From: a virus
Virus record (IMG/VR): IMGVR_UViG_3300044811_000010
Location: 1-64,000 of that record
Strand: one strand, 5' to 3'
Length of the DNA: 64,000 nt
In this document: in pieces, positions 438 to 20,888 of the stretch
How the letters are laid out: every line of letters starts with the position of its first letter
How positions within the stretch are numbered: the stretch's first letter is position 1
Made by a program: the position numbers and the translations under genes
The notes under the pieces: model-generated
Databases searched by the model: none
The model's input: the letters and a program-made list of their open reading frames with translations, nothing else
What the model was told of the DNA's origin: nothing

Positions 438-881
438 ATGCCTCAGCTCTCTCTCCGCGCCCGGCGCGAACTCGCACGCGGCTTCAACTACCGCGACATC
501 AAGGCCATCGGCAACCGGTACTTCTGGGGACTGGGCAACCGCGCTGTGCTGCAGACGGCGCTCGGCACGCCCAACGCGGACCTCTACTTCTACGCGAGGA
601 CTCCCGGCACGGCCGGGAACTCCATCCGGGTTCGGATCGTTGTTGCTGGCAACAGCACGCCGCTCAGCGTGGTCGTTGCAGGCTCGGACATCACGGTGAA
701 CTCGGCGACCGACTCCGGCGGAGCAGCGACCTCGACAGCCCGAGACGTTGTCCGGGCCATCAACTTCGACAACAAGGCCGGCGGCGCTGGGCTTCTCGTG
801 CATGCACAGCACGCGCCCGCGAACGACGGCACCGGGGTAGTCTCCGCGCTGGCTTACACGAACCTCGCCGGCGCTGTCTAA
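438..881 (+). CDS. hypothetical, possibly virion-associated protein (sheath-like A-x-x-PG-x-x-GN-x-I-x-V motif)
   Basis: ORF 432..881; TACGAT-N6-ATG places the start at 438; Gly/Ala/Thr-rich composition. Confidence 0.6.
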   Translation: MPQLSLRARRELARGFNYRDIKAIGNRYFWGLGNRAVLQTALGTPNADLYFYARTPGTAGNSIRVRIVVAGNSTPLSVVVAGSDITVNSATDSGGAATSTARDVVRAINFDNKAGGAGLLVHAQHAPANDGTGVVSALAYTNLAGAV

Positions 882-894
882 CAGGCGCCTCCGC

Positions 895-923
895 TTGACT
901 TAGACTCCCAGTAGTGGTACGAT
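895..923 (+). promoter_or_regulatory. sigma70/SigA-type promoter
   Basis: TTGACT-N17-TACGAT with TG extended -10. Confidence 0.75.
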
Positions 924-1006
924 CCTTGGGTCGCTGGCGCTACGCGCACTACGTCCGGCTCAGACACGGCAGCGGCTTCTCTTCCCCAACCGAAGGAGGC
1001 TCTACC

Positions 1007-1231
1007 ATGCAGCTCACCAACCGGCATCCTCGCCCGGCCGCTCTCGCGTCAGAACTCGCGGACGCTCAGGCGAAGCACAACGCGGAGGTCGCCGCCTCCA
1101 AGCAGCGACTAGCCGACAAGCGGGACTGGGTCGTTCAGCGGGCGACGGATCGAGTGCAGGCTGTTCGCGAGCTTCAGCGTGACCTGAAGACCGAAGAGCA
1201 GGCGCTCAGCGATCTGATCAAGGCCGCGTAG
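1007..1231 (+). CDS. small coiled-coil protein
   Basis: GAAGGAGG SD before ATG 1007; helical Ala/Glu/Gln/Arg-rich sequence. Confidence 0.7.
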   Translation: MQLTNRHPRPAALASELADAQAKHNAEVAASKQRLADKRDWVVQRATDRVQAVRELQRDLKTEEQALSDLIKAA

Positions 1232-1251
1232 CTGATAGGCTACGGTGTGTA

Positions 1252-1325
1252 GGGCCGACGTTGGAGGGCAGAACGGGTAAACGGAAACGCCCCGGCTGTC
1301 GAGGGTTCGACTCCCTCTCGGTCCA
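1252..1325 (+). ncRNA. tRNA-like RNA with alanine acceptor identity and no canonical anticodon loop
   Basis: Acceptor GGGCCGA/TCGGTCC with G3:U70 and A73; T-arm GAGGG-TTCGACT-CCCTC; central region cannot form a 7-nt anticodon loop. Confidence 0.7.
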
Positions 1326-1327
1326 TC

Positions 1328-1386
1328 GGGGATTACAGGCATCGACGCGCCTAGCGCGGACGTGGGTTCGACTCCCACAGTCTCCA
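1328..1386 (+). ncRNA. minimal tmRNA tRNA-like domain (no mRNA-like domain)
   Basis: 5' GGGGATTACAGGCATCGAC and 3' GGACGTGGGTTCGACTCCCACAGTCTCCA match the tmRNA termini (G3:U70, TCGAC, GGAC, T-arm); they are joined only by the hairpin GCGC-CTA-GCGC. Confidence 0.8.
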
Positions 1387-1387
1387 C

Positions 1388-1680
1388 TGCAAGGCAGTAC
1401 AGACGGCCGCGCGGTCCCCTGCTCAGGTAAGGCACCGTGAGGAAGGTCGAGGCATCGCGCCCCGCCACATTGGGGAGGACGAGGGGCAAGAGGGAGGGCT
1501 TAGGCCCGCTATGACCTCAACTGCGGTCAAGCGATGCGATCCCTGAAGCGCCGGCGAGTGGCAGCCGGACTGGTGGGAGCGGCGGTAGCGAGCAATCGCC
1601 CGCTAGAGCCTAGGCTCTAAGAAGGATGGTCGTCACCGGCACAGGCCGGCACAGAACCTCGCCTATCGGACTGACTTGCA
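1388..1680 (+). ncRNA. rnpB: RNase P RNA (compact, 293 nt)
   Basis: P1 TGCAAGGCAGT/ACTGACTTGCA; P2 GACGGCCG/TGGTCGTC; CR-I GAGGAAGGTCGAGG and CR-V ACAGAACCTCGCCTA form the 8-bp P4 with bulged U; P5/P7 GCATCGC/GCGATGC; P15 TCCC/GGGA with GGT in L15; P19 CCGGC/GCCGG. Confidence 0.9.
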
Positions 1681-1704
1681 TCTGTCAACGAAGTATGCTA
1701 GAGT
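1676..1704 (+). promoter_or_regulatory. promoter of tRNA cluster 1
   Basis: TTGCAT-N17-TAGAGT with TG extension; near-identical copy at 9604-9632. Confidence 0.75.
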
Positions 1705-1762
1705 TCTTCGAACGCCGCAGAGGTTGGCTCTGTAGGAGGTTTGAATCCTCCGTGCGGCTCCA

Positions 1763-1835
1763 GGGGGTGTAGCTCTAACGGTAGAGCGCCTGCCTTGCAA
1801 GCAGAGGGTTGTGGGTTCGAATCCCATCTCCTCCA
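1763..1835 (+). tRNA. tRNA-Ala(TGC)
   Basis: cloverleaf, loop CT-TGC-AA, G3:U70. Confidence 0.95.
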
Positions 1836-1863
1836 CTTGGGGAGTCTTCGGGCTCCCCGCCAA

Positions 1864-1935
1864 GCGCCGCTAACTCAGCGGGAGAGTGCCACGGTGACAA
1901 CGTGGAAGTCGCAAGTTCGATTCTTGCGCGGCGCA
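1864..1935 (+). tRNA. tRNA-Val(GAC)
   Basis: cloverleaf, loop GT-GAC-AA. Confidence 0.95.
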
Positions 1936-1941
1936 CTTCAT

Positions 1942-2014
1942 GGCCCTGTAGCTCAGCGTGTAGAGCGTCCGGTTTACACCCGGCAGGTCGTAGGTTCGAA
2001 TCCTACCAGGGCCA
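1942..2014 (+). tRNA. tRNA-Val(TAC)
   Basis: cloverleaf, loop TT-TAC-AC. Confidence 0.95.
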
Positions 2015-2019
2015 CTCAT

Positions 2020-2096
2020 GGGACAGTATCCCCTCCGTCTGATAAGCGGTAGAAAGGGTAGCTGGTAACACGAGGGTTCAACTCCTTCCTGTCCCA
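2020..2096 (+). tRNA. atypical tRNA-Ile(GAT), D-loop displaced to the 3' side of the anticodon arm
   Basis: Acceptor GGGACAG/CTGTCCC+A; T-arm GAGGG-TTCAACT-CCTTC; anticodon CCGT-CTGATAA-GCGG starts 8 nt after the acceptor; D-loop-like AGCTGGTA lies after it. Confidence 0.75.
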
Positions 2097-2100
2097 CTCC

Positions 2101-2173
2101 GCAGCGGTAGCTCAATTGGTAGAGCACCACCTTGCCATGGTGGATGTCGCGAGTTCGAATCTCGTCCGCTGCT
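2101..2173 (+). tRNA. tRNA-Gly(GCC)
   Basis: cloverleaf, loop TT-GCC-AT, U73. Confidence 0.95.
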
Positions 2174-2176
2174 TAC

Positions 2177-2249
2177 GCCTCCGTAACTCAAATGGCTAGA
2201 GGCCCGGCTCTTACCCGGTGCGATGCGGGTTCGATTCCTGCCGGGGGTA
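2177..2249 (+). tRNA. tRNA-Lys(CTT)
   Basis: cloverleaf, loop CT-CTT-AC. Confidence 0.92.
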
Positions 2250-2253
2250 CTTC

Positions 2254-2326
2254 GCTCGCATGGCGCAAATGGCAGCGCACTCCCTTGGTATGGGAGAGGT
2301 TCTGAGTTCGAGTCTCAGTGTGAGCT
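2254..2326 (+). tRNA. tRNA-Thr(GGT)
   Basis: cloverleaf, loop TT-GGT-AT. Confidence 0.95.
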
Positions 2327-2369
2327 TCGGTGGGAAATGTCGGCCGTAAGGCTGGGCGCCCATCGGTAC

Positions 2370-2437
2370 GCCTCGCCATCAGGAGATGGCCTGTCCCTTG
2401 TAAGGACGGAGGCTGGGTTCGAGTCCCAGGCGAGGCT
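2370..2437 (+). tRNA. tRNA-Thr(TGT), compact D-arm
   Basis: GCCTCGC/GCGAGGC; D hairpin CATC-AGGA-GATG; loop CT-TGT-AA; 68 nt. Confidence 0.85.
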
Positions 2438-2441
2438 CTTC

Positions 2442-2508
2442 GCCGGACGATCAGGGATCAGCCGTCTTTCGTAAGGACGGCAGACGAGTTCGATTCTCGT
2501 GTTCGGCT
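2442..2508 (+). tRNA. tRNA-Thr(CGT), compact D-arm
   Basis: GCCGGAC/GTTCGGC; D hairpin GATC-AGG-GATC; 7-bp anticodon stem, loop TT-CGT-AA; 67 nt. Confidence 0.85.
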
Positions 2509-2511
2509 TAC

Positions 2512-2587
2512 GCAGGTGTGTTCACAACGGCATGATGCTGGCCTTCCAAGCCATGCGATGAGGGTTCGACTCCCTTCACCTGTTCCA
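2512..2587 (+). tRNA. tRNA-Gly(TCC)
   Basis: cloverleaf, loop CT-TCC-AA; followed by an encoded CCA. Confidence 0.92.
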
Positions 2588-2669
2588 AGGTTGTAGGTCA
2601 CCACGACCGCTGACTCCCGCGCGCATAAAGACGTAAGGCGCGGGGCGAGGACGGTGACTGCGTCTATGC

Positions 2670-2742
2670 GGCTTCGTAGCTCAGTCGGTAGAGCAGGCCC
2701 CTGAAAAGGGTCGTGTCGCAGGTTCGAATCCTGCCGAAGCCA
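2670..2742 (+). tRNA. tRNA-Phe(GAA)
   Basis: cloverleaf, loop CT-GAA-AA. Confidence 0.95.
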
Positions 2743-2746
2743 CTTC

Positions 2747-2786
2747 AACGCCCGCTAGAGAGGTCCGATCCCTCCTAGCGGGCGTT
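2747..2786. terminator. bidirectional hairpin terminator between tRNA cluster 1 and convergent ORFs
   Basis: AACGCCCGCTAG...CTAGCGGGCGTT inverted repeat. Confidence 0.65.
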
Positions 2787-2793
2787 CTGCGTT

Positions 2794-2994
2794 CTAGGGC
2801 TTGAGGAACGTGACGACGAGTCCGATGGTGTAAGGATCTCGTTGGTTGCCACCTTCCAGCGCTGAAGCAGACGACAGTGCGTAGCCAGCGTCTGCTGCAG
2901 CCTTCAGCTCGGCGACGAACGTCTCGGTGTCTGACAGAGACGCCGGGATTGGGGTCTTCACCGTCACGGTGTCCACGCGCTTGACCTCGATCAT
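2794..2994 (-). CDS. hypothetical protein
   Basis: ATG at 2994 overlaps the stop of the upstream ORF (ATGA coupling). Confidence 0.6.
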   Translation of the reverse strand: MIEVKRVDTVTVKTPIPASLSDTETFVAELKAAADAGYALSSASALEGGNQRDPYTIGLVVTFLKP

Positions 2995-3203
2995 CCGAGC
3001 ACCAGTACGCTGTTGGCGTTCTTGACCACCGAGACGTGGCCTAGATCGTTCTCGATCCTGATGCGATAGACGACGTGCCACTGGCTGACGCGCTTAGGCT
3101 CCCCAGGGTCGAGGACGACGCCGGGAACGACTTGGCCGCTCTGGTTGTAAGCAACCCTAGCGCCCCTCGTGATCTCAGTACCTCGGCTGTCGCAGACGAT
3201 CAT
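2991..3203 (-). CDS. hypothetical protein (small, SH3-like beta fold possible)
   Basis: ORF translationally coupled to both neighbours. Confidence 0.6.
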   Translation of the reverse strand: MIVCDSRGTEITRGARVAYNQSGQVVPGVVLDPGEPKRVSQWHVVYRIRIENDLGHVSVVKNANSVLVLG

Positions 3204-3946
3204 CGGGATTCACCGGCTGCCTTGGCTGCCGCCTTGCGGCCGGCGGCGTCATCGAGCTGCTCCTGCGTCGTCTCGGGGTAGACACCTAGGATCGCAGCGT
3301 CGAGCAGCAGCTTGAGGTTGACGGGGCGGTACTTCGTCTGCTCGACCGAGAGGTTGATGTGGTTGCGGACGAACGGAACGAAGGCGTCCCGGCTGTAGCC
3401 GTTGTTGTGGATGTGGCCGTGGACGCGGATGTGGTCGGCGGACATGGGCCCGTCCTCGGCGTCGTTCCATGCGTAGTGCGAGAAGCTGACTTGGTGCTGG
3501 CAGTCGGCCGGGTCGCCGAGTGGGTCGTCAAACCCGCGCACGCGCAGGTACGGCTCCTCTGCGTGGACTTCGAGGCCCAGCGCGAACGGCCGCACGACTT
3601 GGAAGCCTGACTTCTTGTAGAAGCTGTAGGGCTGCTTGTCGTGGTTGCCGATGATCAGCAGCTTACGGGCGCCGGTCAGCTCCTTGGCGATCAGGTGCTT
3701 GAAGCGGCCGTTGCCTCGGTAGCTGAGGTCGCCAAGGTGGAGCACCGTAGCGTCGTCAGGCACTTGGGCTCGCCATTCGGCGATCATCACTTGCTCGTGG
3801 TCTTCCGGCCTATGGCAGAAGCCGACGATGTTGTCGTGGCCGAAGTGCGTGTCGGAGACGATCCAAGTGTTCTCTGGGTCGATGTCGTCACGGAACTTCA
3901 TGGCCGGGCGCGATTCGGACGCGCTGCCGGTTCTAGAGTTGCTCAT
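3200..3946 (-). CDS. calcineurin-like metallophosphoesterase
   Basis: SDTHFGH, HLGD, GNHD and HGHIH motifs; leaderless TACGAT-N6-ATG. Confidence 0.9.
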   Translation of the reverse strand: MSNSRTGSASESRPAMKFRDDIDPENTWIVSDTHFGHDNIVGFCHRPEDHEQVMIAEWRAQVPDDATVLHLGDLSYRGNGRFKHLIAKELTGARKLLIIGNHDKQPYSFYKKSGFQVVRPFALGLEVHAEEPYLRVRGFDDPLGDPADCQHQVSFSHYAWNDAEDGPMSADHIRVHGHIHNNGYSRDAFVPFVRNHINLSVEQTKYRPVNLKLLLDAAILGVYPETTQEQLDDAAGRKAAAKAAGESR

Positions 3947-4067: not shown

Positions 4068-4409
4068 TCAGAACCCGAGTTCGTCAAGGCTGGCGCGTGG
4101 GTCGGAATCTAGGACCACTTCTTCGCCGCTGCAGCCCCAAGGCTCGGCGCAGGGGACGTGATGTGGGCACGGACGGGCAACGCGCTTGTAGCCCTTCGGA
4201 ATGCTGCGCGCCCTAGGAGGCGTCGGCTTGTCGATGAACACGCCGAACTCCTTGAAGCAGTCGGCGCAGAGGTCGTACTTGCGATCCGGGTACAGCCCAG
4301 GGTCCTGCTGACGGCCGTTTGCCTTCAGGCCGGGCACGTCGATGGTGCGGCGACCGCTGCGGATTTCCCTACCGCAGCGGTCGCACTCGATGATGTTCCT
4401 GACGCCCAT
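4068..4409 (-). CDS. zinc-finger hypothetical protein
   Basis: CDRC...DLCADC plus further Cys/His residues. Confidence 0.65.
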   Translation of the reverse strand: MGVRNIIECDRCGREIRSGRRTIDVPGLKANGRQQDPGLYPDRKYDLCADCFKEFGVFIDKPTPPRARSIPKGYKRVARPCPHHVPCAEPWGCSGEEVVLDSDPRASLDELGF

Positions 4410-5812
4410 CAGAGCGCCGCCCTCTCACGGATCTGGTCGAACGTCTGCTCGTTGACGAGCTGGCCGTCCTTGAACACCGTCTGCAGCGCGTCGCACTCGT
4501 CGTTGTCGAGCCACACGCCTTCCCTGTCCGTGTGGAAGGTGTTGTGCTGCAGGTTCTGGATCAGTGTCAAGCGGCCCTTCTTCGACGCCTTGGTGGAGTC
4601 CAAGGGCTTCTTGTACACGTCGTGCCACTCGCCGTCGCGTTGCTGAGCGCTGCTCTTGAACGCGAAGCGGCAGGTGTCGCGGTTGAGGCGCTGCAGGAGG
4701 CCTCCGCCCATCCCGAACACGAGGTTCTCGGGGCTGAACCCCTGCAACATAGCGCGGTTGACGATCTTCTCGATGCCATGCTCGTCAATCCCGTCGCCCC
4801 ACAGCAGCCGGACGTGCGGGTCGAGGACCCTGAATCCCTTAGGCGTCTGGGTTCCGCCGTAGTAGCTCCACAGCCGCTCCAAGAGCGCCGAGGTCAGGAG
4901 CTGCGGAGTCGGATGGTCGCGCGTGACCGAGTCCGGCCGCACGACGAACACGCCGTCGCGCGAGAGGATGCGGTCCTTGAACGTCGTCCCGACCCGATCC
5001 ACGAACTCGTAGATGTCGTAGGAGTCCGCGACGACGCTGAGGATGCCGCCGGGGTGGTTGTCGAGAAGCCGCGACGTGATCGCGGCCTCTCCATCACGGC
5101 CGAGCGAGGTCATGACCGAGTGCTCGGTCGCCGGAACGCTGAACGCCAGCGTGTTGGGGTCAGCGCCATAGTCACGGATTGCCAGAAGCAGCGCCGGCAG
5201 CGTGTCAGCGCCAACGAAGCTCGTCAAATGGCCCGCCACGGCAATCGCGGCGGCCTCATGGCCCGCTGCACCCCGGTATCCGAAGTCGTGGAGCATGAAT
5301 TGAAGCCCATCGAGGCCCGATCCGGCCGCAGTGAGGCGTTCGGCGAGCATTCGCTTGACCGAGCGGCTCCTAGTGGCAACCGTCGTCGGGTACCAGACGT
5401 GCATGAGCAGCGATTCGAGCGCGTTGGTGAGCCAGAACGCATCGGGGTCGGTGTTCTCGACCGCCATCAGCACGTTCCCGACCGGGACAACGGACCCCTC
5501 GGGCACGGCCTTGATGTGCAGCGGCAGACGCCCTCCATGCCGGTCGATGATCGTCTCCCAGCCCTTGTAGTTGAAGACCGAAGCGTCCCCGAAGTGGACC
5601 CGAGCCAGCTCGAAGGCTTCACTGAGGTTCTCGTAGGTCACGCGAGGGATGGTCTTCAGGATGGACTGCAGGCCGAAGAACACCGTCTCGTCGTACTCCG
5701 AACCCTGACGGGCTTCGAGGTAGCTGTAGACGCCGGTCGTGTTGGCCGGGTACTGATTCCAGTGGCCCAGCTTGTAACTGTCGGTTGCGAGGATCGGATT
5801 GTCGAGCATCAT
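4409..5812 (-). CDS. nadV: nicotinamide phosphoribosyltransferase (NAMPT)
   Basis: TDSYKLGH, LHDFGYRG, PATEHS, SVVADSYD, VVRPDS, WGDGI and FGMGGGLLQ motifs. Confidence 0.95.
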   Translation of the reverse strand: MMLDNPILATDSYKLGHWNQYPANTTGVYSYLEARQGSEYDETVFFGLQSILKTIPRVTYENLSEAFELARVHFGDASVFNYKGWETIIDRHGGRLPLHIKAVPEGSVVPVGNVLMAVENTDPDAFWLTNALESLLMHVWYPTTVATRSRSVKRMLAERLTAAGSGLDGLQFMLHDFGYRGAAGHEAAAIAVAGHLTSFVGADTLPALLLAIRDYGADPNTLAFSVPATEHSVMTSLGRDGEAAITSRLLDNHPGGILSVVADSYDIYEFVDRVGTTFKDRILSRDGVFVVRPDSVTRDHPTPQLLTSALLERLWSYYGGTQTPKGFRVLDPHVRLLWGDGIDEHGIEKIVNRAMLQGFSPENLVFGMGGGLLQRLNRDTCRFAFKSSAQQRDGEWHDVYKKPLDSTKASKKGRLTLIQNLQHNTFHTDREGVWLDNDECDALQTVFKDGQLVNEQTFDQIRERAAL

Positions 5813-5814
5813 GG

Positions 5815-6885
5815 CTACGACTCCTTTCGATTGAGGTAGTCCACCAGCATCCCCATCAGCGGACGGTGCTCGGGGACAAGGTTGTTGTAGAACTGCTCTC
5901 GGGAGACTGGGTTGCCGAGTTCCTTCCCGTACTTCACGTCAGGCAGGTCAATCCACTTGACCTCTTCGATGTCGTCGCCCGGCGTGGGGCGGCCGTGGGT
6001 GTACTGCGCCGTGAACAGCATCGTCTTGATGCAGTCCGGCTCGTTGCGGTAGCGCCAGTCATCGACTCGAAGCGACCCGACGTAGCGCACATCCTCGACG
6101 TTCAGGCTCGTCTCTTCCTGAACCTCACGCTTGGCGTCGGCCTCGAAGCTGTCGGAGCGCGGGTCGGAGAAACCGCCAATGAAGCGATAGAGCGTCTCGT
6201 TTGGCTTGCGGCCGAGCAGAAGCTGCAAGGGCTTCTCCGTCGCATAGAAGGCTGCGGCCTCGTCTCGATGCACCGGACACGCAGTCCGTGGCTGGCAGCT
6301 TCGACAGTCGATCCACGACTGCGAAGCCTTGCGCTCGCGCGAGGGAACGTCCTTGAGAATCGCCACGTCTACCGTCGTGTAGGCGGTCGGGAAGCGGGCC
6401 TGCGACGCCCAGATGACGCCGGCACGGAACTCGGGGCTGGACTTAGCCCGGCTGCGGGCGATGTCCTTGCGCTGCGCGCGGCCGGAGTAGAACGTGGTCT
6501 GCGTCAGCTCCTGCGTCGGGTGGTTGCCCGTGTAGTGGCTGATGAAGGAGTCGCGGCCGCCGTAGAGGACGACGCTCTGGCCGGGAGCGACGAGGTTGGC
6601 GATGTTGTCGTCAAGAACGTGCGACCACGCGCGGTCGTTGTTCAAGTCCTTGACGTACAGGACGTTGGCCTCGGGGAACTCCGCGAGGATCATCTGCTTG
6701 CGCGCCTCGAAGTCGAGCGGATTGTTCGTGGAGACGGAAAGCGGCGAAAGGCCGAGGAAGATGATGACCTTGTCGTGCCGGTCGCAGACGTACTTGATCA
6801 GCTCCCTATGAGCGTTGTGCAGCTCATGGACCTGGAATCGCCCTACCAGTACCCCTACGTCGTACTGCTTCTCTGTTGGCTGCAT
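5815..6885 (-). CDS. nadM: bifunctional NMN adenylyltransferase / Nudix ADP-ribose pyrophosphatase
   Basis: GRFQVHELHNAH (HxGH-like), NPL, Nudix box GG..REVQEET; SD GAAGGAGG before ATG 6885. Confidence 0.9.
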   Translation of the reverse strand: MQPTEKQYDVGVLVGRFQVHELHNAHRELIKYVCDRHDKVIIFLGLSPLSVSTNNPLDFEARKQMILAEFPEANVLYVKDLNNDRAWSHVLDDNIANLVAPGQSVVLYGGRDSFISHYTGNHPTQELTQTTFYSGRAQRKDIARSRAKSSPEFRAGVIWASQARFPTAYTTVDVAILKDVPSRERKASQSWIDCRSCQPRTACPVHRDEAAAFYATEKPLQLLLGRKPNETLYRFIGGFSDPRSDSFEADAKREVQEETSLNVEDVRYVGSLRVDDWRYRNEPDCIKTMLFTAQYTHGRPTPGDDIEEVKWIDLPDVKYGKELGNPVSREQFYNNLVPEHRPLMGMLVDYLNRKES

Positions 6886-6986
6886 CAGGCGCAAACCTCC
6901 TTCTATGTCCGGGCCGCGCATCGGTGCGACGGCTCTACGAGAACCGTACCACAGGGCGGCGACGAGCGCAAGGGTAGAGTGGGAGG

Positions 6987-7391: not shown

Positions 7392-7421
7392 GTCAGAGAA
7401 GCGTGCTATAGTCCCTGACGC

Positions 7422-7499
7422 GCTGCCGCGCATAGGCGAGCAAGGCCGGCTGTAACCCGGCGTCCTCTGGACTTGCAGGTTCGACTCCTGACGGCAGCA
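7422..7499 (+). tRNA. tRNA-Tyr(GTA)
   Basis: loop CT-GTA-AC, long variable arm, reduced D-stem. Confidence 0.88.
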
Positions 7500-7503
7500 C
7501 TTC

Positions 7504-7587
7504 GGAAGGCTCCGCTTGGTGGCAGGCAACTCGGTTCGAACCCGAGGGCGGCGTTTCTCGTTGGGGGTTCGACTCCTCAGCCTTCCG
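7504..7587 (+). tRNA. tRNA-Ser(CGA), 8/4 fold
   Basis: 8-bp acceptor GGAAGGCT/AGCCTTCC, 4-bp T-stem, loop TT-CGA-AC, G73. Confidence 0.85.
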
Positions 7588-7591
7588 CTTC

Positions 7592-7663
7592 GTCGTAGTG
7601 CTGGGAGTGGCGACCAGCCGGGCTGCAACCCCGAGAACGTCGGTTCGAATCCGACCTACGACT
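7592..7663 (+). tRNA. tRNA-Cys(GCA)
   Basis: loop CT-GCA-AC, U73. Confidence 0.92.
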
Positions 7664-7666
7664 TAC

Positions 7667-7753
7667 GGAGAGGACCCGGCTGGATCAGGAGCTTGCCCGC
7701 TAAGCAAGTAGCGCGTCCTAGATGTGTTCGGGGTTCGAGTCCCCGTCTCTCCG
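7667..7753 (+). tRNA. tRNA-Ser(GCT)
   Basis: loop CC-GCT-AA, long variable arm, G73. Confidence 0.9.
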
Positions 7754-7758
7754 CTCAC

Positions 7759-7844
7759 GGAGAGGACCCGGCTGGATCAGGAGCATCCCTGGAAAGGATG
7801 TGCGGCGGTCACGCGTCTTCAGGGTTCGAGTCCCTGTCTCTCCG
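7759..7844 (+). tRNA. tRNA-Ser(GGA)
   Basis: loop CT-GGA-AA, long variable arm, G73. Confidence 0.92.
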
Positions 7845-8031
7845 CTTGATCGCTCCAACGGCTGCCCCGAGTAGCGCGACGATCATCACCAGTGCCGCAA
7901 GTGCCGCCACTACGACAGCCGCGTAGATGACGATGAAGGGCAGCAGGATCCCCGCGACGAGCGCGATTCCGGTGCCCAAGCAGCCTCCGTCAGACATCAG
8001 CCGCAGCAGACTCCACTGCAGGCGCCGCAGC

Positions 8032-9564
8032 TCACGCGAGCGCCTCGGCCCGCGTGAGCTGCCACTCCCGCGACATCGTCTGCTCGGTGGGCTGGCAGAC
8101 GACATCGTCCAGCACGGCGTTGAGGATCTCGCCGATCTTGCGGCCGTCCGCGCCGATGGCGCGCACGTCATGGCCGTTGATCTTCAGGTCCCTCGGAGAC
8201 GTGGGGACGTTGTCCTTCTCCGCCTCACGGCGCAGCAGTTCCATCCGGCTGATCTGCTCGATGTGACCCTTGTTGGGCTTGCCCTTGCCAGTCAGGTCGC
8301 ACATGCGGTGCAGGAACAGGTCGGCCAGCAGCTCGTCCCCGAACTGCACACGCATCCGGCGGACCTTCGAGCCCTTGAGCTTGCCGTCGACGGTGACCAT
8401 GTGATTGCGAATGAGCAGGCGCACGTCCTCGCGCAGACCGTTGCCTGCGTTCAGGCGCCGAGCGGTCTTGTTCCAGATGCGGGCGCCCGCAACCTCGTGG
8501 TCCTCCGTGGCGACCATCATCGGCGCGCCGCTAGCGACAGAGCGGGACGCGGTCCCGTCCTGAGCGTAGTAGTGCTTGCGTCCGTCCTTCCCAATCCACG
8601 CCGTCTCAGGCTTGCCCGCGTCGTGGAACAGCAGGGCCATGCGGACGCGCAGCGGCGCGTCGACGTGCGTAGCCGTCGTCAGAGCAGCGAACGTGTGCTC
8701 GTCGGTGGTCAGGTCGTGGTAGCGCGAGCCCTGATCGAAGCCGATCATCGGAGCCAGCTCAGGCAGCAGTGTGGCGAGAACGCCAGTGTCGAGCGCCAGC
8801 CTCAGCGCCTTGACCGGCTCGTCGCCCATCAGCAGCTTGCACAGCTCTTCCAGCACGGTTCCGGACGCGTAGCCATTGGCGCTCAGGCCGTTTACAGCGT
8901 CAGCGTGCTCACGCATCTGGTCGAGCGTGTTGCTCGACAGGTCGTAGCCAAGCGTCGAAACGAAGCGCAGAGCACGCAGCGTGCGCAGCGGGTCGTCGCG
9001 GAACGAATCCGGGTGAGTGGTGCGGATGATCTTATGGCTCAGGTCGTACAGGCCGCAGTTCGTCGGGTCCACGACGTTCTCGACCAGTGCCCCGCCCGAC
9101 ATGGTGGTCAACGAAGACATGCCGGCAGTCGGATCCACGATCTTGTAGAGAGCGTTGAACGTGAAGTCACGGCGCACGGCGTCTTCGTCCAGCCGCAGGT
9201 TCGGGTCAACCACGATGTCAAACGCGCGATGCACGTTCTCGCCGGGGGCGGGCGCGCGAGGGCGCTCCGTGCGCGGCAGGACGACTTCGATCAGACCCAT
9301 GCCGCGCGCGGCGACCCGCCATCCGGCCTGCCGACCATCGCGCAGCACCAGCGGGGAAACGACGTTGGACTTGTTCGCGGGGTCGTACCGAATCGCGGCG
9401 TCCTTGAGCGCAATGCCCAGCTTCGCCAGTCCGACGCCTCGGATCATGTAGTCAGCGTCCTTGACCTTGCGGCCGATCAGTTCGTCTCGAACGGAGCCGC
9501 CGACGCGGTAGGCTTCGAAGCCCAGGCCGGCGATGAAAGTGTCTGTCCGCTCGATGTACGCCAT
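8032..9564 (-). CDS. cca: CCA-adding tRNA nucleotidyltransferase with HD domain
   Basis: VGGSVRD, DAD, RRDFTFNAL, FRDDPLRTLRALRF and LLFHDAGK motifs; leaderless TACGTT-N6-ATG at 9564. Confidence 0.93.
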   Translation of the reverse strand: MAYIERTDTFIAGLGFEAYRVGGSVRDELIGRKVKDADYMIRGVGLAKLGIALKDAAIRYDPANKSNVVSPLVLRDGRQAGWRVAARGMGLIEVVLPRTERPRAPAPGENVHRAFDIVVDPNLRLDEDAVRRDFTFNALYKIVDPTAGMSSLTTMSGGALVENVVDPTNCGLYDLSHKIIRTTHPDSFRDDPLRTLRALRFVSTLGYDLSSNTLDQMREHADAVNGLSANGYASGTVLEELCKLLMGDEPVKALRLALDTGVLATLLPELAPMIGFDQGSRYHDLTTDEHTFAALTTATHVDAPLRVRMALLFHDAGKPETAWIGKDGRKHYYAQDGTASRSVASGAPMMVATEDHEVAGARIWNKTARRLNAGNGLREDVRLLIRNHMVTVDGKLKGSKVRRMRVQFGDELLADLFLHRMCDLTGKGKPNKGHIEQISRMELLRREAEKDNVPTSPRDLKINGHDVRAIGADGRKIGEILNAVLDDVVCQPTEQTMSREWQLTRAEALA

Positions 9565-9603
9565 GGGAGAAACGTACCACATTGGGCTTCCGGGCGCAAG
9601 TTC

Positions 9604-9632
9604 TTGCACATGTCACGAAGATGTGCTAGAGT
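9604..9632 (+). promoter_or_regulatory. promoter of tRNA cluster 3 (divergent from cca)
   Basis: TTGCAC-N17-TAGAGT with TG extension. Confidence 0.75.
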
Positions 9633-9685
9633 CCCATCTCTGGTCAGCGCTCCGTCGGCGACGGCGGGTAGCGGGGCCAGGACAC

Positions 9686-9757
9686 TGAGGAGTAGTGTAA
9701 TGGCAGCACCGGAGTCCTTGAAACTTCGTAGTGCGGGTTCGAGTCCCGCCTCCTCAT
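9686..9757 (+). tRNA. tRNA-Gln(TTG)
   Basis: cloverleaf, loop CC-TTG-AA. Confidence 0.9.
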
Positions 9758-9761
9758 TCAC

Positions 9762-9833
9762 TGCGGAATGGTGTAACGGCAGCATGGCGGGTTCTGAGCC
9801 CGTTCGATCTAGGTTCGAATCCTAGTTCCGCAG
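9762..9833 (+). tRNA. tRNA-Gln(CTG)
   Basis: cloverleaf, loop TT-CTG-AG. Confidence 0.93.
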
Positions 9834-9838
9834 CTCAC

Positions 9839-9909
9839 TGGCGTGTAGCTCAAGGGCAGAGCCTCCGGTTGTTACCCGGCGGATGAGGGTTCGAATCCTT
9901 CCATGCCAG
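9839..9909 (+). tRNA. tRNA-Asn(GTT)
   Basis: cloverleaf, loop TT-GTT-AC, G73. Confidence 0.93.
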
Positions 9910-9914
9910 CTCAT

Positions 9915-9988
9915 CAGCGTGTGGCGCAGTCTGGTAGCGCTCTTTTCTGGGGAAAATGAGGTCGCAGGTTCAAATCCTGCCACGCTGA
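9915..9988 (+). tRNA. tRNA-Pro(GGG)
   Basis: cloverleaf, C1-G72, loop CT-GGG-GA. Confidence 0.88.
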
Positions 9989-9994
9989 CTTCTC

Positions 9995-10067
9995 GCAGCC
10001 ATGGTCTAGTGGTCATGATGCCGGCCTTTCAAGCCGGACGACGAGGGTTCGAATCCCTCTGGCTGTA
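9995..10067 (+). tRNA. tRNA-Glu(TTC)
   Basis: cloverleaf, loop CT-TTC-AA. Confidence 0.93.
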
Positions 10068-10071
10068 CTAC

Positions 10072-10144
10072 GGCGCGTTGGGGTAACGGTTAGCCTCTCA
10101 GCTTCTCAAGCTGCTGGATACGAGTTCGAATCTCGTACGCGCTA
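10072..10144 (+). tRNA. tRNA-Glu(CTC)
   Basis: cloverleaf, loop TT-CTC-AA. Confidence 0.92.
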
Positions 10145-10149
10145 CTCAT

Positions 10150-10221
10150 CGGGATCAAGTGTTTATGGCTGCACCGGCCCCTCGGACGGGTCAAGACGGA
10201 GTTCGAATCTCCGGTTCCCGA
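10150..10221 (+). tRNA. tRNA-Pro(CGG)
   Basis: cloverleaf, loop CT-CGG-AC. Confidence 0.88.
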
Positions 10222-10225
10222 CTTC

Positions 10226-10308
10226 GCTCCCGTGGTGGAATGGTAGACGCGCTAGGTCGAGAGCCTAGTGCCCTAACGGGCGTGCAGGTTCAAGTCCTGC
10301 CGGGAGCA
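10226..10308 (+). tRNA. tRNA-Leu(GAG)
   Basis: long variable arm, loop TC-GAG-AG. Confidence 0.92.
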
Positions 10309-10314
10309 CTGCAT

Positions 10315-10399
10315 ACCAGCGTGGTGAAATTTGGTAGACGCAGCAGGTTCAGAACCTGCCGGCCGCAAGGTCTTGAGGGTTCAAGTCCCTCCGCTGGTA
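10315..10399 (+). tRNA. tRNA-Leu(CAG)
   Basis: long variable arm, loop TT-CAG-AA. Confidence 0.93.
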
Positions 10400-10403
10400 C
10401 TAC

Positions 10404-10488
10404 GCAAGAGTGGCGAAATGGGTAAACGCTCCGGGCTCAAACCCCGGCGAGGTCATTCCTCTTGAGGGTTCGATTCCCTCCTCTTGTA
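10404..10488 (+). tRNA. tRNA-Leu(CAA)
   Basis: long variable arm, loop CT-CAA-AC. Confidence 0.93.
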
Positions 10489-10492
10489 CTAC

Positions 10493-10566
10493 GTCTCCTT
10501 AGCTCAGCAGGATAGAGCGCTGGTCCGCGAAGCCAGAGGCCGCAGGTTCGAATCCTGCAGGGGACG
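10493..10566 (+). tRNA. tRNA-Arg(GCG)
   Basis: cloverleaf, A20, loop CC-GCG-AA. Confidence 0.9.
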
Positions 10567-10570
10567 CTCC

Positions 10571-10644
10571 GGTGATGTAACTCAGTCGGATAGAGTGGCG
10601 GCTTGTCAAGCCGTTGGTCGCGGGTTCGAGTCCCGTCATCACCG
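10571..10644 (+). tRNA. tRNA-Asp(GTC)
   Basis: cloverleaf, loop TT-GTC-AA, G73. Confidence 0.95.
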
Positions 10645-10648
10645 CTTC

Positions 10649-10721
10649 GCCTCCGTAACTCAGCGGACAGAGTGCTTGGCCTCGAACCAAGTGGTCGCGG
10701 GTTCAAATCCTGCCGGGGGCG
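10649..10721 (+). tRNA. tRNA-Arg(TCG)
   Basis: cloverleaf, A20, loop CC-TCG-AA. Confidence 0.9.
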
Positions 10722-10727
10722 CTACAC

Positions 10728-10802
10728 GGTGAATGTAGACTAATCGGTCAAGTCCCTTGGTTGTGAACCAAGCCGATGCGGGTTCGAGTCCCGTCGTTCA
10801 CC
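10728..10802 (+). tRNA. tRNA-His(GTG)
   Basis: G-1:C73 pair, loop TT-GTG-AA. Confidence 0.93.
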
Positions 10803-10807
10803 CTCTC

Positions 10808-10876
10808 GGGTCATAGGTCATGGCGACCAAGCAGGTTCCAACCCTGCAGGACAGCGTTCGATTCGTTGATGACCCG
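10808..10876 (+). tRNA. tRNA-Trp(CCA), compact D-arm
   Basis: loop TT-CCA-AC, G73, 69 nt. Confidence 0.87.
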
Positions 10877-10880
10877 CTTC

Positions 10881-10947
10881 GGCTCTCTGAAGGTACGACA
10901 CGGTCCCTCATAAGGACGGTGGACAGGTTCGAGTCCTGTGGGAGCTA
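10881..10947 (+). tRNA. tRNA-Met/Ile2(CAT), essentially D-armless
   Basis: GGCTCTC/GGGAGCT+A, loop CT-CAT-AA, intact T-arm, no D-stem; 67 nt. Confidence 0.78.
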
Positions 10948-10951
10948 CTTC

Positions 10952-11020
10952 GCCCTTGAAGTTGGATACGCGACGGCCCTCCTAAGGCTTGCGCAGCGAG
11001 TTCGATTCTCGCCGGGGGCT
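10952..11020 (+). tRNA. tRNA-Arg(CCT), reduced D-arm
   Basis: loop CT-CCT-AA, intact T-arm; 69 nt. Confidence 0.8.
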
Positions 11021-11021
11021 T

Positions 11022-11092
11022 CGCAGATAGGTGGTCTGGTGACCATTCGGGCCTCATAAGCCTGAGAGCAGGGTTCGACTCCCGGTCTGCTA
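11022..11092 (+). tRNA. tRNA-fMet-like (CAT)
   Basis: C1:U72 mismatch, A73, loop CT-CAT-AA, G-rich anticodon stem. Confidence 0.78.
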
Positions 11093-11146
11093 CTTGTGGT
11101 ACGATTCACCCTCGGCTGGCGGCTCGGGGGAGACGGTCGAATCCTT

Positions 11147-13269: not shown

Positions 13270-15516
13270 TTGATGGACTTCGACCTGACACGCGCGTTGC
13301 GAGCCCAAGCGGCAGGGAAGGCGCTTGGTCCGTTCCCGGCGCTCATGAGCCGCGACCCTGTCTCGACATACACACCTGGATATGGTCAGCAGCCCCGCAC
13401 CGACGCGCTGTTCTCTCAGCAGAACGCCGAGCGCCACGCTGGCGCATACGGCGGCGATCAGGCGATGGACTGGGTCTATGACGCGATCAACCTCTACGCC
13501 GACCCGATCTCCACCGCCCCCTTCCACCTGAAGCAGCAGGACGGCACCAAGCTGGTCAAGACCCGCCTGAAGGGCACGCCGCCCGACCACAATGTCGGCC
13601 CGCCCGATCTCTACCGGCTGCTTGAGCAGCCCAACCCGTTCATGATGTACGACGAGCTGGTGGCGCTGCTCGTCATCGACCTGATGCTGGTCGGCAATGC
13701 CTACTGGTTCAAGTGGCGCACCGGAACGTCCGGCAAGCCGCTGGCGATCTACCGCCTAGCGCCGTCGCACGTCAAGCTCGTTCCGGGGCCGTTCGGACCC
13801 GAGCGCTACGAGTACCAGCCGCCCGGAGTCAAGGACCCGCTGAAGATCAGCGCTGAGGACATGCTGCACTTCCGGCGACCCAACCCTCACTCTCAGTACC
13901 TCGGCCTCGGCGTCATTCAAGGCGGCGGCCGGGCGATGGACCTTGACCTCGCTGTGACCGACACCGTTGCGAGCTACTACGAGAACCGCGCCGACCCGTC
14001 CATGATCATTCAGGCCGAGCGCCGGGTGTCGCGCGACGTGTTCAACAAGCTTCGCGCGCAGCTTCGAGCCCGCTCGTCTGGGTCGCACCGAGCCGGCGAA
14101 CTGCTCGTCCTTGAAGCGGGGTTGAAGGCATCCTCGCTGAGCGCCAGCGCCAGCAACGCCCTTTTCGACTCGCTTTCGAAGATGTCGCGCGACCGGATCC
14201 TCGCCAAGTTCCGCGCGAACCCGAAGCTGTTGGGCATCATGGACGAGACGGGCGGCGCCGACAAGGTCGCCGACGCGCGCTTGGAGTTTGACAACGCTGC
14301 CCTGCGCCCGTTCATGGACAAGCTGCAGAAGCTCATCTCGGCCAAGCTCACGGCGGCGTGGGACTGCGAGTACGTCATCGACTACCGCACGCAGATGCCG
14401 CCGGACCAAGCCGTCAAGGTCGCGGGCGAGATCGCCAAGATTCCGGGGATCAAGGTCCGCGAGCTGCGTCGGCAGTACACGCAGTTCGGCATCGAAGAGT
14501 CGACCGGGGACGCCGCGATTGACGAGACGGTCCTCAACATGCCGACCAACGAGCTGGACGCCAACGGCAACCCCATCGGAGGGGGCGCCGGGCTCGCCGA
14601 TCAGCCTCTACCCGGCGAGGCAGGCCGCCCGCCCGGCGGCAATCGCACCGCAGCGTTCCCGAAGAACGGAGCCGCACCCACGCCGGGCGCCCGCGTTCGT
14701 GGCCCCGCCAAGAAGTCTCTGGACGAGATCGCCGCTCGCCTTGAAGTCCTAGGGCTCCTCGAAAGGGTCGAAGGCAAGGCGGTCAGCACGCCAGCGCCCG
14801 ACAACCGGCTCTCGGGAGAGCACCGCCCGAGCGACAGCTTCGCGGGCGCCCGGCGCATCGACATTGACGATGCCGCCTCTGACATCGCTGCGGGGCTTCG
14901 CGACGCGTCGGTAACTCTTGAGCGAGCGCTGCTGGACCACGTCGAGGGCAAGGCCCTGAAGACCTCAGACCTCGCAGGCCGCATCCGCAAGTCGGTGGCG
15001 TGGACGACGTTCCGCAACCAGATCACCAAGATCATCGAAGACGGCGCCAAGCGTGCTGCCCAGAGCGCGGTCGCGCACTCCGGGCTGACTCTTGAGGACG
15101 AGGTCGACTACGACTCCATCGTGAAGTCCGTCGCGAACCGTCCCGAGGGCATCCGCAGCATCGTCAACACGCTGCGCACCCGCGTTGTCAACGCCATCAA
15201 GGACGCCCGCAACGCCAACGCTGAGCGCACCGAGTTCGAGACTGCGGTTCGAGCGTCGCTGAGCGATTGGGCCGCCTCGCAGGCAGTCACCATCGCTGAC
15301 ACCGAGGCAACCCACACCTACAACGAAGCGACGCTCACAGCCGCCGAGCAGGCGGGCATCAAGTCGGTGCTCGTGACCGACGGCGACGAGGACGACGAGC
15401 CCTGCATTGAGGCCAACGGCCAGGTCTGGGACATCAAGACCGCCCGCGAGCGCCGAGTGGAGCACCCGCGCTGCCGCCGCGCCTTCCTTCCTCTGACTGC
15501 TGAAGCGGTAACCTAG
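13270..15516 (+). CDS. portal protein fused to a MuF-like head morphogenesis domain
   Basis: HK97-type portal motifs (L..PNPFM, LMLVGNAYW, LHFR); C-terminal IADTEATHTYN...C..ANG...HPRCR. Confidence 0.88.
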   Translation: MMDFDLTRALRAQAAGKALGPFPALMSRDPVSTYTPGYGQQPRTDALFSQQNAERHAGAYGGDQAMDWVYDAINLYADPISTAPFHLKQQDGTKLVKTRLKGTPPDHNVGPPDLYRLLEQPNPFMMYDELVALLVIDLMLVGNAYWFKWRTGTSGKPLAIYRLAPSHVKLVPGPFGPERYEYQPPGVKDPLKISAEDMLHFRRPNPHSQYLGLGVIQGGGRAMDLDLAVTDTVASYYENRADPSMIIQAERRVSRDVFNKLRAQLRARSSGSHRAGELLVLEAGLKASSLSASASNALFDSLSKMSRDRILAKFRANPKLLGIMDETGGADKVADARLEFDNAALRPFMDKLQKLISAKLTAAWDCEYVIDYRTQMPPDQAVKVAGEIAKIPGIKVRELRRQYTQFGIEESTGDAAIDETVLNMPTNELDANGNPIGGGAGLADQPLPGEAGRPPGGNRTAAFPKNGAAPTPGARVRGPAKKSLDEIAARLEVLGLLERVEGKAVSTPAPDNRLSGEHRPSDSFAGARRIDIDDAASDIAAGLRDASVTLERALLDHVEGKALKTSDLAGRIRKSVAWTTFRNQITKIIEDGAKRAAQSAVAHSGLTLEDEVDYDSIVKSVANRPEGIRSIVNTLRTRVVNAIKDARNANAERTEFETAVRASLSDWAASQAVTIADTEATHTYNEATLTAAEQAGIKSVLVTDGDEDDEPCIEANGQVWDIKTARERRVEHPRCRRAFLPLTAEAVT

Positions 15517-19565: not shown

Positions 19566-20888
19566 ATGGATCTCAAGCAGCTCACCGACGCGATCTCCGC
19601 CCTGGAGACGAAGGCCAACGAGACGCTCGCCGCTGTCGAGGCTGGCGACAAGACGGCCGAGGAAGCCAAGGCGCTCATCGCCGAGTGGCAGCCTCAGATC
19701 GAAACCCTCACGCGCGACCGTGAGTCTGCTCTGCAGGCCAAGGCGCTCGAAGACCTGCGCGGCGAGTTCGGCACGCTGCAGTCCGTCATCGAAGACCTCC
19801 GCAAGCCCGCTGGTGAGTTCGTGCTTCCCACGGACGGCGAGGGCAAGTCGCTTCCCGAGGACGACCCCTACTCCGCAGGCAACTACTCCGTCTTCGCCGA
19901 CATCCGCATGGCGAACAAGGGCCAGCAGGACGCCCGCGACCGTCTGACCAAGGGCTTCGAGGGTCTGACCCCCGAGGGCAAGGCTATGACGGAAGGTACC
20001 GACGCGCAGGGCGGCTACCTCGTTCGCCCGCAGATCGAGCGCCAGATCGTTGAGGCCCGCGAGCTGGACAACGTCCTTCGCACCCTCTGCTCCAAGCTGA
20101 ACGTCACCACGACGAGCATTCAGCTCGACCAGATCGGCCTGACGACGACTGCCGGCTGGGTCGCCGAGCTGGCTCAGAAGCCTGAGTCGACCGGCATGAC
20201 GCTGGCGACCGTCACGGCCAACGTCTTCACGGCGGCTGGCCTCGCGACGATCTCCAACCAGCTCCTGCAGGACTCCAACCCGGCCATCGACGGCCTCGTC
20301 ACGGCTGACCTCGCCAAGCGCCTCGTCGCGCTGGAAGAGACGGCCTTCCTCAACGGCTCCGGAACGGGACAGCCTCTCGGCATCCTGAACACTCCGGGCA
20401 TCGGCGCAACGCCGCTGACGGCGACGGACATTCTCTCGCTGCTGGACTCGATCCTCGACTCCATCGCGACGGTCGAAACGGCGCACGGCGCCCCGACGGC
20501 CATCCTGATGCACCCGCGTACGTGGACTCGCATCCTGAAGTCCCGCGACTCGCAGGGCGCCTACTACATCGACCCGGTCGGCGGTCCTCAGGACCCCCGC
20601 ACGGGACAGCGCGGCCCGGTCAAGTCCCTCTGGGGCTACCAGGTTGTCACGTCCAACCGAGTCCCGACCAACCTCGGAACGGGCACCAACGAGTCTCGCG
20701 TCATCATCGGCGACTTCGCCGAGGCGCTGATCCTCGACCGTCAGGGAATCACGGTGGACGAGTCGAGCCACGTCTTTTTCACCACGAACCAGACGGTGTT
20801 CCGCGCTGAGCAGCGAGTCGGCTTCACCGCCGCCCGCACCCCGTCCGCCTTCAACGTGGTCGGTGGCGTCGGCCTGGCCAACGGCTGA
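19566..20888 (+). CDS. major capsid protein (HK97 fold)
   Basis: coiled-coil delta domain, GGYLV.P, A.WVAE, ISNQLLQDS, GSGTGQPLGI, GDF, FRAEQR. Confidence 0.95.
   Translation: MDLKQLTDAISALETKANETLAAVEAGDKTAEEAKALIAEWQPQIETLTRDRESALQAKALEDLRGEFGTLQSVIEDLRKPAGEFVLPTDGEGKSLPEDDPYSAGNYSVFADIRMANKGQQDARDRLTKGFEGLTPEGKAMTEGTDAQGGYLVRPQIERQIVEARELDNVLRTLCSKLNVTTTSIQLDQIGLTTTAGWVAELAQKPESTGMTLATVTANVFTAAGLATISNQLLQDSNPAIDGLVTADLAKRLVALEETAFLNGSGTGQPLGILNTPGIGATPLTATDILSLLDSILDSIATVETAHGAPTAILMHPRTWTRILKSRDSQGAYYIDPVGGPQDPRTGQRGPVKSLWGYQVVTSNRVPTNLGTGTNESRVIIGDFAEALILDRQGITVDESSHVFFTTNQTVFRAEQRVGFTAARTPSAFNVVGGVGLANG

Follow-up and report, generated by a model that had tools for sequence, protein, structure and literature searches.

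RNase P RNA is regarded as a core cellular gene. Its bacterial type-A form, the rnpB product or M1 RNA of Escherichia coli, has about 150 nt inside helix P5. Small forms are also described: type T of the Thermoproteaceae (Pyrobaculum) is about 200 nt long with the specificity (S) domain nearly absent, the RNA of Mycoplasma fermentans measures about 276 nt, and both are reported to be active. Here we describe a type-A relative in an uncultured tailed phage from soil, at positions 1391-1677 (plus strand, 287 nt) of the 80,254-bp IMG/VR virus record IMGVR_UViG_3300044811_000010, estimated to be 66% complete, of which the first 64 kb (64,000 nt) are hereafter called the window. Judged from its sequence, this is likely to be a functional phage RNase P RNA gene, derived from type A, in which the catalytic (C) domain is kept and the S domain rebuilt. 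The RNA would be freed by tRNA-type processing and would cleave pre-tRNAs of the phage, most likely with the host RnpA protein.

The type T and M. fermentans RNAs resemble the window RNA in that the C domain is kept and the S domain shrunk, a reduction compatible with function. They are the only RNase P of their cells and work with cellular proteins, whereas the window RNA is an extra, viral copy of type-A descent with a replacement module of its own. The sole viral case found is the RNase P-like RNA of camelpox virus, which is reported to be inactive in pre-tRNA processing (PMC3001073). It is likewise virus-encoded and RNase P-like, but it belongs to a eukaryotic virus and its structural similarity is loose, whereas the window RNA keeps the bacterial catalytic core in detail, with covariation. 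Full-text literature searches gave no other description of a phage- or virus-encoded RNase P RNA, and two papers on rnpB finders leave phages, viruses and plasmids unmentioned. Theta ribozymes, which are HDV-like (hepatitis delta virus-like), adjoin phage tRNAs and have a proposed role in tRNA maturation (PMC10879173). As ribozymes of phage tRNA regions they offer a functional parallel, but they are small, self-cleaving in cis and unrelated in fold, whereas RNase P acts in trans on many substrates.

With type-A RNase P RNA the window RNA shares the order and pairing of P1-P5, P15 with its GGU, and the joining regions J3/4, J18/2 and J2/4, as well as a P18-like hairpin and a possible P6-like back-pairing of the distal hairpin loop. 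It differs in being viral, in its length of 287 nt and score of 32 bits, in having 72 nt inside P5 and no recognisable P7-P14, in an additional hairpin with a GNRA cap between P15 and P18, in a P19-like hairpin, in a putative P6 partner that lies in a hairpin loop (a kissing contact), and in the lack of an RnpA gene in the record.

Identity of the RNA

A permissive cmscan of positions 1150-1800 aligned the Rfam model RF00010 (RNaseP_bact_a) globally, over model positions 1-367, to 1391-1681 with 32.4 bits. The E-value was 1.9e-8 in this 651-nt search and 5.5e-10 in a per-genome search, which returned no second copy of RNase P RNA. The match runs to 1681, and P1 closes at 1677. The parts aligned with high confidence are P1, P2, P3, GAGGAAgGUC (consensus GAGGAAAGUC), AGAaGgAUGG, which comprises J18/2 and the 3' strand of P2, and ACAGAACC; J2/4 and the 3' strand of P4 are covered by ACAGAACCucGCcUA. 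The alignment shows that 1391-1677 is genuinely homologous to bacterial type-A RNase P RNA. It is nevertheless a variant RNase P RNA, which we do not file as an ordinary type-A member because it lies under the Rfam cut-off (the gathering score of RF00010 is 100 bits) and lacks the type-A S domain. The relatives described below score 27-57 bits against RF00010, also under the gathering score.

An earlier note on this DNA, made without database searches, had read the segment as a phage-borne RNase P RNA and proposed a covariance-model search and a search for covarying viral homologues as checks. The first gave the significant RF00010 match, though with 32.4 bits against the 100 of the gathering score, and the second gave six further lineages, with 51 of 86 pairs changed on both sides across all seven. 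Together with the P4 pseudoknot, these results bear out the proposed identity.

Catalytic domain

Read from the sequence, the whole C domain is kept. P1 (1391-1401/1666-1677, 9 of 11 pairs), P2 (1402-1408/1628-1634, 7 of 7) and the P3 hairpin (1410-1418/1431-1439, 8 of 9) form the framework that closes the molecule. J3/4 (GAGGAA) and the 5' strand of P4 (AGG-U-CGAGG) occupy 1439-1452, with U1447 bulged, and match the RF00010 consensus GAGGAAAGUCCGGG with high posterior probability. The 3' strand of P4, CCUCGCCU at 1657-1664, forms a pseudoknot with 1444-1452 in which all eight pairs are made. P5 (1453-1458/1531-1536) encloses the reduced 72-nt S domain. P15 (UCCC 1540-1543 / GGGA 1575-1578) holds an internal loop with the P16/17 hairpin (1551-1568) and a GGU at 1572-1574. 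This GGU immediately precedes the 3' strand of P15, which is the type-A position, and type-A enzymes pair it with the 3' end of the tRNA. Between P15 and J18/2 there is a GCAA-capped hairpin of the GNRA kind (1581-1604, tetraloop 1592-1595), followed by a P18-like hairpin (1605-1618). Positions 1619-1656 comprise J18/2 (AAGAAGGAU), the 3' strand of P2, a P19-like hairpin (1636-1649) and J2/4 (ACAGAA, 1651-1656); this stretch aligned to the consensus AGAugAAUGg ... ACAGAA with high posterior probability. All of these elements lie on the plus strand.

Several traits therefore place the domain with type A: P4 with a bulged U flanked by GAGGAA and ACAGAA, the P1-P2-P3 framework with J18/2 in the global alignment to the covariance model, and P15 with P16-P17 and an internal loop L15 that carries GGU, not the hairpin L15 of type B. 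Compared with the RF00010 consensus for P4 (AAGUCCGGG/CCCGGCUU), three pairs are changed on both sides. The earlier note had described the bulged U with three compensatory changes and the GGU in L15, and both descriptions stand. The helices it named (P1, P2, P3, P4, P5, P15 and P19) were found where it had placed them or within one base; its P2 is present as a helix, with the boundaries moved from 1402-1409/1627-1634 to 1402-1408/1628-1634.

Specificity domain

The middle of RF00010, P7-P14, is deleted in the alignment, and unrelated sequence is inserted in its place. Inside P5 we find a hairpin S1 (1460-1475) and a 4-bp helix Sx (1490-1493/1515-1518), which encloses a second hairpin, S2 (1496-1507), through an asymmetric internal loop; these names are provisional and all three elements are on the plus strand. 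The module has the conserved strings GGGAGG and ACC. Its length inside P5 is 72 nt in the window RNA and 67-95 nt in six lineages, and its small helices differ from those of the type-A S domain. A 5-bp, P6-like loop-loop contact joins GCCAC in the S1 loop (1464-1468) to GUGGC in the P16/17 loop (1558-1562) on the plus strand, and it covaries: GCCAC/GUGGC in the window RNA and in the lineage L197, CCGUC/GACGG in G007 and GGCCG/CGGCC in G006.

An S domain that is not recognisable, a score far under the family cut-off and a phage that encodes no RnpA would also suit a catalytically dead mimic, which would act as a decoy by sequestering host RnpA or by competing for the substrates of host RNase P and so tilt RNA processing to the benefit of the phage; the one published viral RNase P-like RNA, that of camelpox virus, was inactive in vitro (PMC3001073). 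A decoy is the main rival explanation, and we judge it unlikely because the residues kept serve catalysis and 3'-end binding, not protein capture alone. Capture of RnpA needs neither the bulged U of P4 nor ACAGAA nor the GGU of L15, yet all are kept, P4 by compensatory changes, and the gene lies in a tRNA-maturation neighbourhood with a CCA-adding enzyme.

Selection on the fold

The alignment of the window RNA with its six relatives (A8) holds seven lineages at about 45-70% identity. Since the model used to fit it came from the window, its pairing counts are inflated except in P4 and P6, and with this limit 95.0% of the cells hold standard pairs, against 70.2 +/- 1.6% in shuffles (0 of 500 as high) and 35-47% when the partners are slid. 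Both-sided changes occur at 51 of 86 pairs, compared with 28.7 in shuffles and 10-14 with slid partners, and the covariation score is 0.508 as opposed to 0.164 and 0.05-0.09, respectively. MAFFT misaligned the divergent members, while the covariance model misplaced the S domain of G011 and G009 and the 5' part (P1-P3) of G006.

The signal is spread over the molecule. The P1-P3 helices are 89-98% paired, with both-sided changes at 20 of 27 pairs (8 of 11 in P1, 5 of 7 in P2 and 7 of 9 in P3), and helices 12-14, between P15 and J18/2, are 91-100% paired, with 11 of 14 pairs covarying. P4 was checked by hand in six lineages: 47 of 48 cells are paired and at least two pair types occur at four positions, among them A-U/G-C/C-G at the second pair, G-C/U-G/U-A at the third and C-G/G-C/A-U at the fifth. 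In the six hand-checked lineages GAGGAA, the bulged U and GGU are invariant, and the GGU stands 0-1 nt 5' of the P15 3' strand. P15 itself covaries (UCCC/GGGA, UCUC/GAGA, CCUC/GAGG), as do P5, P2, Sx, S1 and S2. The P19 hairpin is present in the window RNA, L197, G011 and G009 and absent in G007. Logan contigs from three other soil studies contain relatives with 2-12 substitutions in 1529-1638; on a contig where this stretch differs at 3 positions, the upstream ORF (open reading frame) shows 45 substitutions in 227 nt. From these comparisons of sequences, the window RNA is homologous to its relatives and its fold is under purifying selection.

The same data bear on the view that the gene is what remains of a host rnpB, acquired with tRNA genes and now decaying without function. 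Such a relic might well show the low Rfam score, the P1 and P3 mismatches and the loss of most of the S domain. It would hardly keep 95% of its pairs, with 51 both-sided changes, across seven lineages of this divergence, nor a C-domain stretch far better conserved in other soils than the adjoining ORF, nor a small S domain with conserved motifs and covarying helices of its own. We therefore hold a relic to be very unlikely.

Relatives in viral and prokaryotic records

A covariance model, R1, was built from the window sequence and its deduced structure, with the pseudoknots (P4, P6) left out. Run on 1.19 Mb of viral loci, it detected G007 (103.7 bits), G005 (57.7), G011 and G008 (55.3), G009 (51.6) and G006 (26.5); at E < 0.001 the sole further match, with 22 bits, was L111, a phage RNase P RNA of another lineage. 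A fast genome search with R1 missed G005 and G006, and cmsearch on their loci recovers both. Five of the six further lineages stand on viral contigs; the contig of the sixth, L197, is binned into a metagenome-assembled genome (MAG). A signature pattern common to all members retrieved exactly the six viral member records among 2.9 million viral contigs. In 185,579 prokaryotic genomes it retrieved one real member, L197:4074-4368, the other seven of the eight matches being due to chance.

The L197 RNA scores 156.7 bits with R1 and is about 68% identical to the window RNA. Its contig, CAZBOT010000022.1, is 31 kb long and carries phage-family proteins and a tRNA array; 7.4 kb sampled from it have 64% GC. 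The bin is a 2.8-Mb 'Candidatus Saccharibacteria' MAG that has a canonical rnpB of its own (123.5 bits) on another contig, and a query with the CCA enzyme of the window found nothing in this MAG. The contig of L197 is probably that of a phage, placed in the wrong bin; upstream of its RNA, about 100 nt are masked as N.

Relatives of the CCA enzyme were also aligned (A1) and led to 56 viral loci. Of 50 viral records that encode a related CCA enzyme, seven match RF00010, and R1 raises this number by two. The RF00010 scores are 56.9 bits for G007, 27-28 bits for G008, G009 and G011, and 49.5 bits for G034, while G026 and G044 are more canonical and exceed the RF00010 cut-off. Other approaches were less productive. 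A 15-mer of the P4 5' strand occurs in 101 stretches of viral contigs by chance, the matching P4 3' strand being present only at the window locus among the listed loci checked. A first family pattern applied to metagenome contigs gave chance matches in coding DNA without GAGGAA upstream. The NAMPT and portal genes, used as anchors, led to few contigs, which were unrelated or too short and had no RNase P RNA.

Further phage RNase P-like RNAs (L109-L112, L169, L170 and L172) match RF00010 on viral contigs of 10-437 kb, where they directly follow tRNA genes or lie between them. All belong to lineages different from that of the window RNA. L109-L112, L169 and L170 are more canonical than the window RNA, and the scores of L169 and L170 (173 and 103.5 bits) exceed the Rfam cut-off. 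L109-L112 have the P4 AAGUCGGGG/CCCCGCUU and are without the signature of the window RNA subfamily. The 437-kb phage L172, which has inverted terminal repeats, also encodes a bacterial small signal recognition particle (4.5S) RNA at gathering score (L172:492-578, the G034 record, 40.4 bits), about 1 kb from the RNase P-like RNA of G034 (49.5 bits).

The tRNA neighbourhood

ARAGORN reports 29 tRNA genes in three arrays, all on the plus strand. Array 1 has 9 tRNAs (1763-2743); arrays 2 and 3 have 19 (7422-11093, as 7422-7663 and 9686-11093), none of which encodes CCA. No CCA is encoded by the ordinary tRNA genes: C-U-N-N(-N) comes next after the discriminator, and neighbouring tRNAs in a run mostly stand 3-6 nt apart. 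Spacers such as CUUC, CUAC and CUCAY recur and look like a shared processing signal. The earlier note had described the pre-tRNAs of the phage as tightly packed and non-canonical, which the 3-6-nt spacers, the missing CCA and the tRNA-like elements confirm. It had also placed the RNA between protein genes; the stretch in fact sits between a tRNA-like element at 1328-1386 and the promoter-like and mini tRNA-like elements that head the tRNA array.

Two tRNA-like elements of alanine type precede the RNase P RNA on the plus strand. Element A (1252-1325) has the acceptor stem GGGCCGA/UCGGUCC with G3:U70 and a T arm, and no anticodon arm; in the ARAGORN output it figures as an odd 97-nt 'tRNA-Pro', and it ends 2 nt before element B. 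Element B (1328-1386, 59 nt) resembles the tRNA-like domain of tmRNA, with G3:U70, an A discriminator and a T arm, again with no anticodon arm. Against RF00023 it reaches 42.7 bits (cut-off 47), and 314 model positions shrink to 3 nt; a 5-bp hairpin stands for the mRNA and pseudoknot body. Of what makes up a tmRNA (tRNA-like domain, tag frame and pseudoknots), only the tRNA-like domain is found, and by its sequence element B is an alanine-type tRNA-like domain, not a full tmRNA. The spacer to the RNase P RNA is 4 nt (CUGC), as between tRNAs. Homologues of element B lie directly 5' of the RNase P RNA in G007, G005 and L197, 7 of 17 of its pairs are compensatory, and G3:U70 is invariant in three aligned copies.

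Downstream, also on the plus strand, a promoter-like element (TTGCAT-17 nt-TAGAGT, the second hexamer preceded by TGC; 1676-1704), read from consensus only, overlaps the 3' end of the RNase P RNA and heads array 1. Array 3 is preceded by the same element, in the TTGCAY form, at 9604-9632, and array 2 by TGCTATAGT at 7404-7412. Similar motifs lie 3' of the RNase P RNA in G005, G006, G007 and L197 and 4-5 nt 5' of it in G011. TGNTAGAGT occurs twice in the window, a count that is not significant (15 of 100 shuffles); only the placement before tRNA arrays is suggestive. A mini tRNA-like element (1714-1762, plus strand) then follows, with a 6-bp acceptor stem and the T arm GGAGG-UUUGAAU-CCUCC. It ends in U-CCA, the sole clear discriminator-plus-CCA among the listed tRNA and tRNA-like 3' ends, directly before tRNA-Ala. 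Positions 1705-1800 gave a weak YrlA-like Rfam match.

A 525-aa ORF on the minus strand (8032-9609) encodes a protein of the CCA-adding enzyme/poly(A) polymerase family (PF01743, 3.6e-11; PF12627, 8e-8; HD, 0.0018), which fits the CCA-less tRNAs of the phage. At E <= 1e-10 its relatives number more than 2000; the top ones are 55-72% identical, derive for the most part from metagenome assemblies and include several on contigs of 80-93 kb. The plus-strand ORF 7927-9825 that overlaps it is probably spurious.

Proposed role in tRNA maturation

We propose that the RNase P RNA is transcribed in a short non-coding unit with elements A and B, and that it is released by tRNA-type processing drawn by the flanking tRNA-like elements. 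A search of sequencing runs gave no RNA run that holds the locus. The RNA would act in trans, cutting the 5' leaders of the 29 CCA-less pre-tRNAs of the phage, a role that the earlier note had also proposed, and the GGU of L15 may pair with R-C-U at the 3' side of the precursor through a G-U wobble. Host RnpA is the most likely protein partner because the record encodes none. The CCA-adding enzyme of the phage would complete the tRNA 3' ends, and ribozyme and enzyme together would keep phage tRNA maturation going during infection.

A number of observations speak against a functional gene of this kind. The default Rfam gathering scan of the window reported tRNAs only and not the RNase P RNA, whose score is about one third of the 100 bits required. 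The minimum free energy of the single sequence is no better than that of shuffles (z = 0.31), which is uninformative. P1 has two mismatches and P3 one C-C mismatch. The type-A domain P7-P14, which reads the T/D-loop elbow of tRNA, has no detectable similarity to the S domain of the window RNA, so that elbow recognition may be lost or changed. The P6-like contact is present in four of seven lineages and has no equivalent in G005, G011 or G009, the last P4 pair is lost in G005, and G007 has CCAGGA in place of ACAGAA. The covariation set consists of seven lineages only, and to this is added the inflation of the pairing counts described above. Finally, a search of the 80-kb record, estimated to be 66% complete, for RnpA (PF00825) gave no match; this agrees with the earlier note, which had seen no such gene. 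With these points taken into account, a functional RNase P RNA gene acting with host RnpA remains the explanation we consider likely.

A more far-reaching version is possible, though we regard it as doubtful: a self-contained tRNA-maturation kit. Here an active miniature RNase P would have its 72-nt S domain specialised for CCA-less pre-tRNAs with 3-6-nt CUNN spacers and for anticodon-less, alanine-type tRNA-like elements; it would work alone or with host RnpA, and would be released from its transcript by tRNA-style punctuation.

The phage contig

The contig is a genuine tailed phage. Searches of the window proteins against PHROGs matched a portal (13270-15516), a major head protein (19566-20888) and, on the minus strand, a large terminase (40982-42532), and also DNA polymerase, helicase and ribonucleotide reductase. 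Between tRNA arrays 1 and 2 lie NAMPT and an NMN-adenylyltransferase/Nudix protein, a pair for NAD salvage (4409-6921, minus strand, PHROGs). GC is flat along the contig, about 0.64 with a range of 0.61-0.67. In INPHARED phages, blastn with 1200-1800 gave no match and tblastn with the CCA enzyme gave no relative above 30% identity; because of the latter result there seems to be no cultured close relative. A small ORF of 74 aa from an ATG at 1007 (1007-1231, plus strand) adjoins the non-coding RNAs upstream. It is without family match, and about 80% of its DNA sequence is conserved in a relative that comes from a different soil study (run X2).

As the contig comes from a metagenome, and one relative (L197) lies in a bacterial MAG, the RNA could in principle be a host rnpB joined by mis-assembly or mis-binning, or its resemblance could be due to chance. 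We consider this extremely improbable. GC is flat, phage genes lie on both sides and the tRNAs are on the same strand. A 13,133-nt Logan contig from the probable source run is identical over 600-3400 without a difference, though possibly from the same sample, and the same RNA occurs in the same context in six other contigs. Cellular rnpB genes score more than 100 bits, including the copy of the L197 MAG at 123.5. E-values of 1e-8 to 1e-10, and a signature without a chance match in 2.9 million viral contigs, argue against chance. The earlier note had raised host mis-assembly as something that would overturn its reading; we saw no sign of it, with a second assembly spanning the locus and uniform GC.

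Conclusions

If the RNA is active, a universal ribozyme joins the translation genes carried by viruses, beside tRNAs, tmRNA, CCA-adding enzymes and aminoacyl-tRNA synthetases, and phages would secure the 5' maturation of their own tRNAs. Genes of this kind stay unannotated in viral catalogues, since the Rfam cut-off misses them. The constant association of the RNase P RNA with tRNA-like elements of alanine type suggests an unexplored unit of processing or regulation. The covarying 67-95-nt replacement of the S domain may offer a ready-made minimal enzyme for the study of how substrates are measured without the canonical elbow reader. Should the more doubtful idea of a self-contained miniature kit prove true, it would be the first RNase P of a virus to act in trans, and nature's own test of how small the S domain can be.

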